Below, one piece after another: positions 40,352 through 44,310 of a stretch of DNA of 64,000 bases. How positions within the stretch are numbered: the first letter of the stretch is position 1; each line of letters begins with the position of its first letter. Both the position numbers and the translations under genes were made by a program. The stretch comes from an uncultured Armatimonadetes bacterium (GTDB lineage Bacteria; Armatimonadota; Hebobacteria; Hebobacterales; Hebobacteraceae): contig OY970296.1 in the NCBI GenBank assembly GCA_963716175.1, positions 1,920,001 through 1,984,000 on the forward strand, read 5' to 3'. The notes beneath the pieces are model-generated. The model had not been told where the DNA came from. It did not search any database and saw only the letters and a program-made list of their open reading frames with translations.

Positions 40352-42081
40352 TGTACGTCGTCAGCGATTCTGGGACAAAGGCCAAGCTACAGGGTGAGCT
40401 GATCTGAGTCGGTGTTCCTGCTCCTGGGCGGCGAAATGTACAAGCGAGAAAGGAGCAGGGAGATGGAGGAATCGCTGAGGGCCGATGGCAGTGAGGGGCT
40501 AGAGCAACCGGTGGTGAGCCCGGGGCCGGCTCGCAAGCGAGGGGAGACCCCGCGGCAGCAGATGCTACTCTGCGAAGTAGCTTCGCTACGTAGCACGAGT
40601 CCGGAAGGCCAAGGGTGTCACCCGTCGGCACTTCACCGCCGAGGACAAGATCCGGATCGTGATGGAGGGCATCCAAGGGGAGATCCCGGTCTCGGAGCTG
40701 TGCCGGCGGGAGCGGCTGCACACCACGGTCTATTACCGCTGGCTCAAGGACTTCCTGGAGGGGGGCAAGAAGCGGCTGCGAGGGGATGTGCTGCGGGAGG
40801 CGGGTCGGGAGGAAGTGGCGGCGCTGAAAGAGGAGAATGCCCGGCTCAAGTGGCTAGGCGCAAGCGCCGCCATCCCGGTCCACAGGACCTAGGGACAGTT
40901 GGTGGCGGACTATGCCCTTGACCTGATGGCGCTCAAAAAAAGTCTGATGGCGGAGCGATGACCAAACAGCGCCGTCGGGAGATTGTGGAGCTGGTGGCCA
41001 AGTCACCCCATACGGTGGCGGCGACAGTGGCTGAGATCGGGGTCTCCAAGAGCAGCTTCTACCGCTGGCGCGCCCGGATTGAGTCCGGCTGGAGGCCCCG
41101 GCTGAAGAAGGCGGTCTGGAATGAGTTGCGCCCAGAGGAGCGCCAAATCGTGCTCCAGCAGGCTCTGGCGCAGCCCCACCTGAGCGCCCGGGAGCTGGCC
41201 TGGTGGCTCTGCGACCACGCCAATTTCAGCGTTTCTGAGTCCACCGTGGCGCGCCTCCTGAAGGCCCACGGGCTGCTGCCTAGGCGGGGCCCCGAGCAAG
41301 AGCCGGCCGGGAAGGAGTGGCGCCACAAGACCCGCCGCATCAACCAGATCTGGCAGAGCGACGCCACCCGCTTTTTCATCCCGGGCTGGGGCCACTACTG
41401 GCTGGTGTCGGTGCTCGACGATGGCTAGGCCTGCGGCCGCCATGGCGGTCACCCTCGGTGACCTAGCCACTACTCCCGGCGCCTGCTGGCCTGGGAACTG
41501 GTATCCGACATCCAGGCGGAGAGCCTGGTGGCGGTGATCCAGCGGGCAGTGGAAGTCACCGGGGTGACCGCAGCGCCCCTGGTGGAGCGGCCGGCGGTGC
41601 TCACCGACAATGGCTCAGGCTACATCGGCAAGGTGATGCAGAAGTACCTGAAGGCCCTGGACCTGCGCCATCTGCGAGCCCGCTCCCATCATCCCCAGAC
41701 CACCGGCAAGCTTGCCCGCCTCTGGCGGGATCGAGCGGGTGCACCGCACGCTGAAGGATGACGTGGAGCTGGTGGTGCGGATGAGCCCGGGCGAACTGCG
41801 GGCAGCGATCGCCCAGTTCGTGGCTTACTACAACTCCCAGCGCTACCACGAGGTTTACCCGCCTCTGGCGAGGCGCTGCACAACGTCACCCCGGACGACG
41901 TCTGGTTCGGCCGCAGGGAGGAGATTCTGGCCCGGCGAAGAGCGCTCCAGATCCGCACCGTGATCGCGCGCCGGGAACGCTACCGCCGGCTGAGGGGCCA
42001 GTGCAAGAATACAAGAGCGGGAACACCGGAGGTGTAGCTAACGCAAGACCCCTCTTGTCCCAGTCACGCTGACGCCGGACA
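40352..42081 (+). mobile_element. Inactivated IS3-family element
   Basis: IRs TGTACGTCGTCAGCGATTCTGGGACAA / TTGTCCCAGTCACGCTGACGCCGGACA; orfA FTAEDKIRIV; AAAAAAAG slip site; WQSD, TDNG, IER; five micro-insertions. Confidence 0.88.
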
Positions 42082-44147: not shown

Positions 44148-44310
44148 CGACGGCCCCGGCCACCCCCGACTCCGGCTGCCCCCTCGGCTGGGAGGCATTG
44201 CCAGGGTCTCCGTCACCACCCATCGTAGACGACTCTTCCCCGACACGCGAGTCACAGCCTTCCGGTTGGCGGCGTGATGTCAGGCCGGCTTCACCGGTGC
44301 GTGACAGGGA
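44148..44310 (+). repeat. Array repeat R14 (full length)
   Basis: Core plus distal arm. Confidence 0.9.

Follow-up and report, generated by a model that had tools for sequence, protein, structure and literature searches.

Two double-hairpin inserts in an IS3-family element of an uncultured Armatimonadetes bacterium belong to a structure-defined and very probably mobile DNA family

How the smallest palindromic repeats spread, among them repetitive extragenic palindromes (REPs), mitochondrial GC clusters and mitochondrial double-hairpin elements (DHEs), is an old open question. DHEs were reportedly described by Paquin et al. in 2000, and Elhai et al. in 2008 are said to have described small dispersed repeats of about 21-27 nt in cyanobacteria, proposed to be mobile and with no known transposase. 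Rickettsia palindromic elements of about 100-150 bp, which insert in-frame into protein genes, have also been proposed to be mobile and also have no known transposase. Among bacterial systems with described enzymes, HUH Y1 enzymes require bulged single-stranded hairpins (PMC8266576, portion available) and IS200/IS605 elements insert without duplication (PMC3116915, portion available). Here we describe two inserts of 45 and 48 bp in an IS3-family insertion sequence (IS) within a 64,000-nucleotide stretch (the window; positions 1,920,001 to 1,984,000 of contig OY970296.1, assembly GCA_963716175.1) of an uncultured Armatimonadetes bacterium, whose genome is a single contig of 4.56 Mb and 91% complete. 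Each insert consists of two back-to-back hairpins, and both are, with high confidence, copies of a family of non-coding, non-autonomous mobile DNA of 42-65 bp. Membership is defined chiefly by structure, together with a short conserved core. The inserts and their interrupted host genes are listed in window positions; positions on the genome are given with the prefix G000:C1.

40851..40895, no strand assigned: double-hairpin element of type TGGC/TCCC, 45 bp (insert 1), in orfA of the IS3-family element
41422..41469, no strand assigned: double-hairpin element of type TGGC/TGGC, 48 bp (insert 2), in the rve (integrase core) domain of orfB
40602..40961, + strand: IS3-family orfA (HTH_Tnp_1), interrupted host gene (PF01527, E 5e-11; homologue alignment)
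40958..41990, + strand: IS3-family orfB (HTH domains and rve integrase core), interrupted host gene (PF13565/PF13384; PF00665, E 1.7e-9)

The orfA/orfB junction carries an A7G slippery run at 40935-40942 and an ATGA overlap at 40958-40961. In the orfA frame, the second CTAG of insert 1 gives a TAG stop at 40890-40892, where the open reading frame 40659..40892 terminates, and in the orfB frame the first CTAG of insert 2 gives a TAG stop at 41426-41428, which terminates the frame 40958..41428. One CTAG of each insert is thus read as an in-frame TAG, which disrupts the two transposase genes. In an alignment of the locus with IS homologues of two other genera (DNA identity 64-68%), an exact 45-bp gap was observed opposite insert 1 in both homologues, with an exact 48-bp gap opposite insert 2 in the one homologue (G014) that reaches this site, the second homologue locus stopping short of it. 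Insert 2 was also missing from one metagenome contig of a diverged IS homologue (run X5), where the joint runs from 41415 to 41469 with 5 synonymous letters between. The ends of insert 1 are unambiguous (G^T...A^C, with the caret marking the boundary), those of insert 2 are ambiguous by 1 nt (A), and no target duplication accompanies either. When both strands of both inserts were folded as single-stranded DNA, the double hairpin was the minimum-energy and also the centroid structure in all four cases, each hairpin having a 4-bp basal stem and a 2-nt TA bulge. The fold energies were -12.2 and -15.3 kcal/mol (z = -2.5 to -3.4), and of 200 shuffles per strand only 3, 3, 0 and 2 folded at least as well. 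Rfam covariance models run over 40400-41700 returned one sub-threshold chance match, outside both inserts.

Further copies were sought in the genome with a scripted structure descriptor (four bases, TA, a hairpin, the complement of the four bases, then the mirror image) and with IUPAC patterns, together with controls. The descriptor identified 78 loci of 42-60 bp across the whole genome, which fell into 41 independent groups by their flanks, and the core pattern had 124 matches compared with none for a reversed-pattern control. Strict single-unit descriptor counts were 82 for TGGC, 21 for CCCC, 18 for TCCC and 10 for CGGC, while in a Markov-1 random genome no 4-mer exceeded 3 and no type was enriched. 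Each element is built of two back-to-back hairpin units that read Y-SSC / TA / GG-stem-loop-stem-CC / GSS-R, followed by the mirror image. Four kinds of 4-bp basal stem were observed, each with its complement (TGGC/GCCA, TCCC/GGGA, CCCC/GGGG, CGGC/GCCG), and a fifth (TCGC/GCGA) was seen on a viral contig. The basal stems, the two TA bulges, the GG/CC feet of the stems and the centre (CCGCCR^YSSCGG) are conserved; distal stems and loops vary freely with pairing retained. To measure covariation, units were located only by the centre motif, a perfect hairpin and TA, so that basal pairing was not demanded, and the exact complement was found for 31 of 34 TCCC stems (GGGA), 45 of 51 TGGC stems (GCCA), 20 of 22 CCCC stems (GGGG) and 5 of 10 CGGC stems (GCCG). 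The 156 units contained 107 distinct hairpins, with loop changes predominating between close hairpin pairs, and hairpin modules reappeared in differing combinations among copies.

Evidence of movement came from filled and empty sites. An exact 12+12-nt empty site was present elsewhere in the genome for 20 of the 78 loci, in one case as many as 33 times, and the hosts of these copies were REPs of GTAG type with the element at the stem/loop boundary. Of the 41 groups, 11 had their insertion point no more than 2 nt from the loop of a perfect stem (6 bp or longer), compared with 167 of 5000 random positions; this test replaced a minimum-energy fold of the rebuilt empty sites, judged too crude, which had placed 12 of 41 groups in loops compared with 615 of 2000 random positions. 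Three further 48-bp copies lie in-frame within genes that are otherwise intact, each adding 16 residues: a prolyl-tRNA synthetase (ProRS) gene (G000:C1:3387426-3387473), an MtnA-type isomerase gene (G000:C1:1798200-1798247) and a gene for a pyruvate formate-lyase (PFL)-like glycyl-radical enzyme (G000:C1:644373-644420). Orthologues in relatives lacked exactly these 16 residues in every case (ProRS, 9/9; MtnA, 9/9; PFL-like, 6/6 of those spanning the site). All three in-frame copies occupy the only phase per strand that avoids both TAGs, and the two copies in the IS occupy stop phases.

The target was a purine^pyrimidine (R^Y) step in 33 of the 41 groups of this genome (G^C in 19) and in 31 of 38 groups identified elsewhere, in other genomes and on viral contigs, with 25% expected. 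Beyond R^Y only weak preferences, at -2 and -4, were observed. The element and each of its units begin with a pyrimidine and finish with a purine, and all three junctions are therefore R^Y steps. Copies were also nested in one another in about seven types, the inner element always co-oriented with its host element and placed at GC^CA or G^CCA of the host's centre; nested GC^CA sites are the main exceptions to the R^Y target. No target duplication was observed in any exact comparison of filled and empty sites (IS homologues, genomic empty sites, ProRS, MtnA and PFL-like genes). The first-pass annotation of the window, made from sequence alone, had described double hairpins with TA bulges at the two insert positions, compensatory changes in their basal stems and a lack of target duplication, and had proposed a genome search by structure descriptor and a comparison of empty with filled alleles. 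The exact sequence and fold, the covariation, the gaps in the homologues and the genomic empty sites agree with it on each of these points; further copies exist, and the homologues do not contain the segments.

The filled and empty sites bear on two other explanations. An ordinary cut-and-paste miniature inverted-repeat transposable element (MITE), mobilized as double-stranded DNA by a DDE transposase encoded elsewhere through terminal inverted repeats (TIRs) TGGCTAGG/CCTAGCCA, would suit a genome rich in MITEs and insertion sequences, and copies of TGGC/TGGC type do have perfect 8-bp TIRs. We regard it as very improbable given the absence of target duplication and given that the two termini of TGGC/TCCC and TGGC/CCCC copies do not form inverted repeats with one another, although each pairs with its internal partner. 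No longer element with such ends was found among 62 unpaired units, no transposase recurs as a neighbour, and 42 bp is very short for a synapsed two-end complex. The second explanation dispenses with transposition and invokes replication template switching or gene conversion between hairpin-forming sequences, the correction of palindromes yielding an apparent covariation. Compensatory changes in DNA palindromes can indeed come from template switching without selection, a point against our interpretation of the basal stems. Many copies lie in members of the same REP families, where conversion or spread of the REP itself may have multiplied them, the shuffling of hairpin modules among copies is in keeping with such events, and L-L-R forms are explicable by deletion between short repeats. 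However, insertions are found in unique coding sequence whose flanks show similarity over no more than 1 nt, an identical conserved core is found in distant phyla and in AT-rich genomes, and the gain equals the exact element length every time; movement of a discrete element fits these observations, and we consider its absence quite unlikely.

Several other small sequences were observed in or beside the copies. At G000:C1:1774780-1775481 there are five tandem copies with a period of 162 bp, the unit containing one 54-bp double hairpin. A MITE containing TTTCATAACCT, about 130 bp long and present in over 60 copies, is inserted at CTAG within a double-hairpin cluster (G000:C1:1762990-1763270 and 1765845-1766125). 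CTAG is otherwise depleted (56 in the window compared with about 153 expected), and the double hairpins provide CTAG sites. Relative to the G014 homologue, orfB is also broken by two further tiny insertions: a 19-bp hairpin at 41710-41728 (CCCGCC-TCT-GGCGGG with a CTTG lead), which shifts the frame, and a 20-bp piece at 41849-41868 flanked by a CGAGG repeat, whose CCCGCCTCTGG core is shared with the hairpin element at 40563-40601 described next. Genome-wide there are 13 occurrences of this core, which lie in REP tips and other IS fragments. Just 5' of orfA, at 40563-40601, lies a second tiny hairpin element of 37-39 bp with a conserved TGCTACTCTGCGAAGTAGC head and a GCACGAG tail; it had 19 BLAST matches in the genome, some in REP tips, and one copy lies in another IS copy (G000:C1:2120271-2120307). 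The same 40563-40601 stretch showed very high summed contig depth with many different flanks in four metagenome runs. A short stretch at 44154-44194 likewise had very high summed depth and many loose ends in metagenome runs, and is probably another widespread small repeat.

The family extends beyond this genome. The core pattern was present in 12 of 14 genomes of the window's taxonomic family and in both genomes of a second family of the same class, one with 175 matches; in a third family a single match was found in 1 of 12 genomes, and in the rest of the Armatimonadota sample the pattern was essentially absent. A scan of one genome per species identified at least 77 carrier stretches, with an estimated total of about 200. 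By record title, since lineages of distant carriers were taken from titles and both labels and binning of metagenome-assembled genomes (MAGs) can err, the carriers were Armatimonadota, Ca. Hebobacteria, 'Bacillota' MAGs, Saccharibacteria, Sungiibacteriota, Omnitrophota, Solibacteraceae and Planctomycetota. Carriers of 0.7-1.2 Mb labelled as candidate phyla radiation (CPR) or Omnitrophota had AT-rich flanks and retained the GC-rich core, 6 of 51 relatives of one small carrier genome had the pattern, and five viral contigs each had a copy. Because this distribution is patchy while the core is constant, it points to horizontal spread of the family. In one small genome two identical copies 2 kb apart do not bracket a transposase; they lie in the 5' regions, themselves duplicated, of two paralogous genes for secreted proteins.

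An RNA route was also considered, in which the element is transcribed, reverse-transcribed and inserted, as proposed for the mitochondrial DHEs. Missing flanking duplications are the argument made for the Allomyces elements (PMC2800124, in the portion available), and a reverse transcriptase (RVT_1) match was found in 3 of 5 small carrier genomes, with 2 over the cut-off. No RVT_1 match was found in the present genome, 91% complete and with its 124 pattern matches. The elements are two-fold symmetric and present in both orientations, and many copies lie in REP tips that look untranscribed. We therefore rate spread through RNA as highly unlikely, and favour movement as DNA.

For the enzyme, our leading named candidate is an HUH Y1 protein like the REP-associated tyrosine transposases (RAYTs), an assignment we consider less likely than not. 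HUH recognition of bulged single-stranded hairpins is a plausible way of working by analogy, since the folded geometry and the need for extrahelical bases resemble those of HUH Y1 enzymes (PMC8266576, as far as its available portion goes). Five Y1 (PF01797) genes of the genome exceed the cut-off and a sixth falls below it, the best score being 36.8 bits. The five RAYT-like genes are located at G000:C1:961975-962520, 4050696-4051292, 3625714-3626256, 3132006-3132578 and 1199809-1200342; four of them are paralogues, 53-66% identical, with HxH and Y motifs. Each of the five is bracketed by halves of GTAG-type REPs (GTAGGGCGGGCATG... or GGCAGGAGC...), a layout that is the classical REPtron, several of which are thus present in one genome.

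A number of results weigh against a Y1 mover of this kind, or against mobility as we read it, and they are given here together. No double hairpin was found within 5 kb of any of the six Y1 loci of this genome; among relatives, 1 of 14 Y1 loci had a unit within 200 bp, and that unit lay inside the flanking GTAG REP, and in small carrier genomes none of six Y1 loci had a nearby unit. PF01797 was present in 47 of 61 relatives, including all 12 of the element-poor third family, and in the small-genome group it was present in 5 of 6 carriers and in 34 of 45 non-carriers. Y1 presence does not track the elements, and Y1 genes are too common to discriminate. The Y1 proteins of distant carriers are just 24-25% identical to those of this genome. 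On one strand the bulges of the two hairpins lie on opposite sides, whereas IS608-type ends are alike. A fixed target of 4-5 nt was absent, with only R^Y recovered in the 41 groups here and the 38 elsewhere. Among 49 heterotypic copies there was no clear bias of strand or orientation relative to replication, the cumulative GC skew being noisy, and head-to-tail abutted ends resembling a circle junction were absent from the genome. In public metagenome runs no same-strain polymorphism of filled and empty sites was seen, the contigs over the region being fragmentary and none spanning insert 1. The first-pass annotation had called the inserts minimal REPIN-like elements defined by structure and had looked to an HUH/RAYT gene flanked by such units. 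The tiny, structure-defined inserted element stands; its link to REPINs (paired REPs) and RAYTs is not supported, and the flanked gene was not borne out at the Y1 loci of this genome, its relatives or the small carriers.

Other enzymes were also sought. TnpB (PF07282) was not found in the genome, and the Y2 transposase family PF04986 gave no match, with the control for it silent in every genome too. No transposase or recombinase recurred next to elements in the neighbour genes of 114 clusters, the largest paralogue groups beside elements having 5 members each (GFO/IDH/MocA, URO-D, SLH and ANTAR regulators). A full-length element with double-hairpin ends and a TnpA Y1 gene was likewise not found among the 62 unpaired units. 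Eight IS110-family genes were observed, four of them near-identical copies. The corresponding element of about 1.7 kb (four copies, 99.7-100% identical, including G000:C1:815741-817456) sits beside catctc-like sequences and looks recently active. These genes bring in a further explanation, a site-specific recombinase (tyrosine, serine or IS110-type DEDD) acting on a structured site without duplication, as in integron attC sites and Xer-dependent single-strand integration. The lack of duplication would agree with it, and so would the conservation of structure rather than sequence, with extrahelical bases as in attC sites. Nevertheless, the IS110 enzyme was rejected as the mover, as the catctc-type insertion sites of its copies are unrelated to those of the elements, with which the copies have no end sequence in common. 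The attC core (RYYYAAC/GTTRRRY) is absent from the elements, the target amounts to R^Y alone, without a common core at the two junctions, and no recombinase gene recurs beside elements. We judge a recombinase of this type unlikely. A trans-acting enzyme that moves non-autonomous DNA as a folded single strand is our best explanation overall, one to which we give about even odds of being correct. That the element is recognized as a folded single strand, whatever the enzyme, is on balance probable.

A possible course of events can be drawn from the geometry of the element. By construction, the complement of the centre (X'Y) equals the abutted ends (Y'X), so that in the folded strand the basal stems could stack into one 8-bp helix. 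This would bring the two element ends together at a nick-like point, 4 nt away from each TA bulge, with the flanks entering and leaving there. A trans-acting, structure-specific single-strand nuclease or recombinase may cut at this point, releasing the element or copying it as a folded single strand, possibly a small single-stranded circle; a single cut-and-rejoin there would give both precise excision and closure of the circle. The reverse reaction at an exposed single-stranded R^Y step, often a hairpin tip, would insert the element with no target bases duplicated or deleted. A duplex of 42-60 bp is too stiff and short for a double-stranded circle and awkward for a synapsed two-end DDE complex.

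The family gives a clean handle on the spread of small palindromic repeats. It offers exact ends and dozens of filled/empty pairs in one genome, a simple target rule (purine^pyrimidine, often hairpin tips), and the same short core in widely differing hosts, among them genomes of 0.7 Mb that hold few candidate enzymes; the hunt for the enzyme is therefore tractable by comparative genomics and oligonucleotide biochemistry. ProRS, MtnA and a glycyl-radical enzyme show that proteins can gain 16 residues from 48 bp of selfish DNA. With residues added to proteins and an IS knocked out, the family has effects on how proteins evolve and on how other mobile DNA turns over. In genome annotation, such inserts produce false stops and split genes.

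Compared with described bacterial systems, the family shares features with several and differs from each. REPs and REPINs with their RAYT (TnpAREP) Y1 nucleases are also small, high-copy palindromic repeats, and in the available portions of PMC3116915 and PMC8266576 the bulged single-stranded hairpin is the recognition form and new copies enter or adjoin existing ones. A REP or REPIN has a GTAG (or CGTC) 5' foot, whereas units of the family read YSSC-TA-GG, with TA bulged in the stem and no GTAG. REPIN halves pair into one long hairpin, whereas the hairpins of the family are self-contained with unrelated stems. In a REPtron the RAYT is flanked by its cognate repeats, and the repeats beside the RAYT-like genes here are classical GTAG REPs rather than double hairpins. 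These GTAG REPs form a layer of their own in the genome; their tips are targets of the family, which also enters coding genes. IS200/IS605 elements and their miniature derivatives, like the family, show no target duplication and have hairpin ends with extrahelical bases, and their single-strand circle intermediate would fit its geometry. They use a fixed left-flank target of 4-5 nt, however, which the family lacks, and the family's hairpins mirror each other instead of being alike on one strand, with no autonomous partner and no TnpB. An integron attC site is a single bulged hairpin with RYYYAAC/GTTRRRY motifs, whereas both inserts have two hairpins and neither motif. A MITE of a DDE transposon has TIRs and a duplication; the family has TIRs only in its TGGC/TGGC type and no duplication. 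The cyanobacterial small dispersed repeats and the Rickettsia palindromic elements are reportedly of other sizes, lineages and structures. Our literature search on double-hairpin elements and palindromic in-frame elements found no bacterial counterpart, which is not proof that none is in print.

Closer likenesses are found in mitochondria. The GC clusters of yeast mitochondria (GC42), as described in the available portion of PMC4478555, are also about 42 nt, hairpin-forming and with changes concentrated in loops, and their palindromic modules merge and shuffle, with mobility and no known enzyme. They differ in that an AG target is present on both sides, while nothing is duplicated by the family. 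The closest analogues are the mitochondrial DHEs, compared here by description only (portions of PMC10085805 and PMC2800124), so that the likeness is one of kind, with no DHE sequence compared. The DHEs of Allomyces, other chytrids and Schizosaccharomyces are likewise short GC-rich repeats of two adjacent hairpins, considered mobile, located between genes and within rRNA or coding genes, with no flanking duplications, no known enzyme and near-identical copies across species. The DHE traits of two adjacent GC-rich hairpins, dispersed copies and absence of flanking duplication are all found in the family. DHEs are organellar and the family bacterial, and the descriptions compared report neither TA bulges nor an R^Y target nor central nesting for DHEs. 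A bolder interpretation, which we offer as a possibility and hold doubtful, is that the family represents a previously undescribed class of bacterial mobile DNA whose identity is the shape of a folded single strand, two stacked hairpins with TA bulges 4 nt from the cut point, and whose enzyme is either nearly universal or travels separately. Such a class would cross phyla, including ultra-small CPR-type genomes and phages, would live in essential proteins as a 16-residue insert, and might represent, in free-living bacteria, a counterpart or ancestor of the DHEs and GC clusters of mitochondria.

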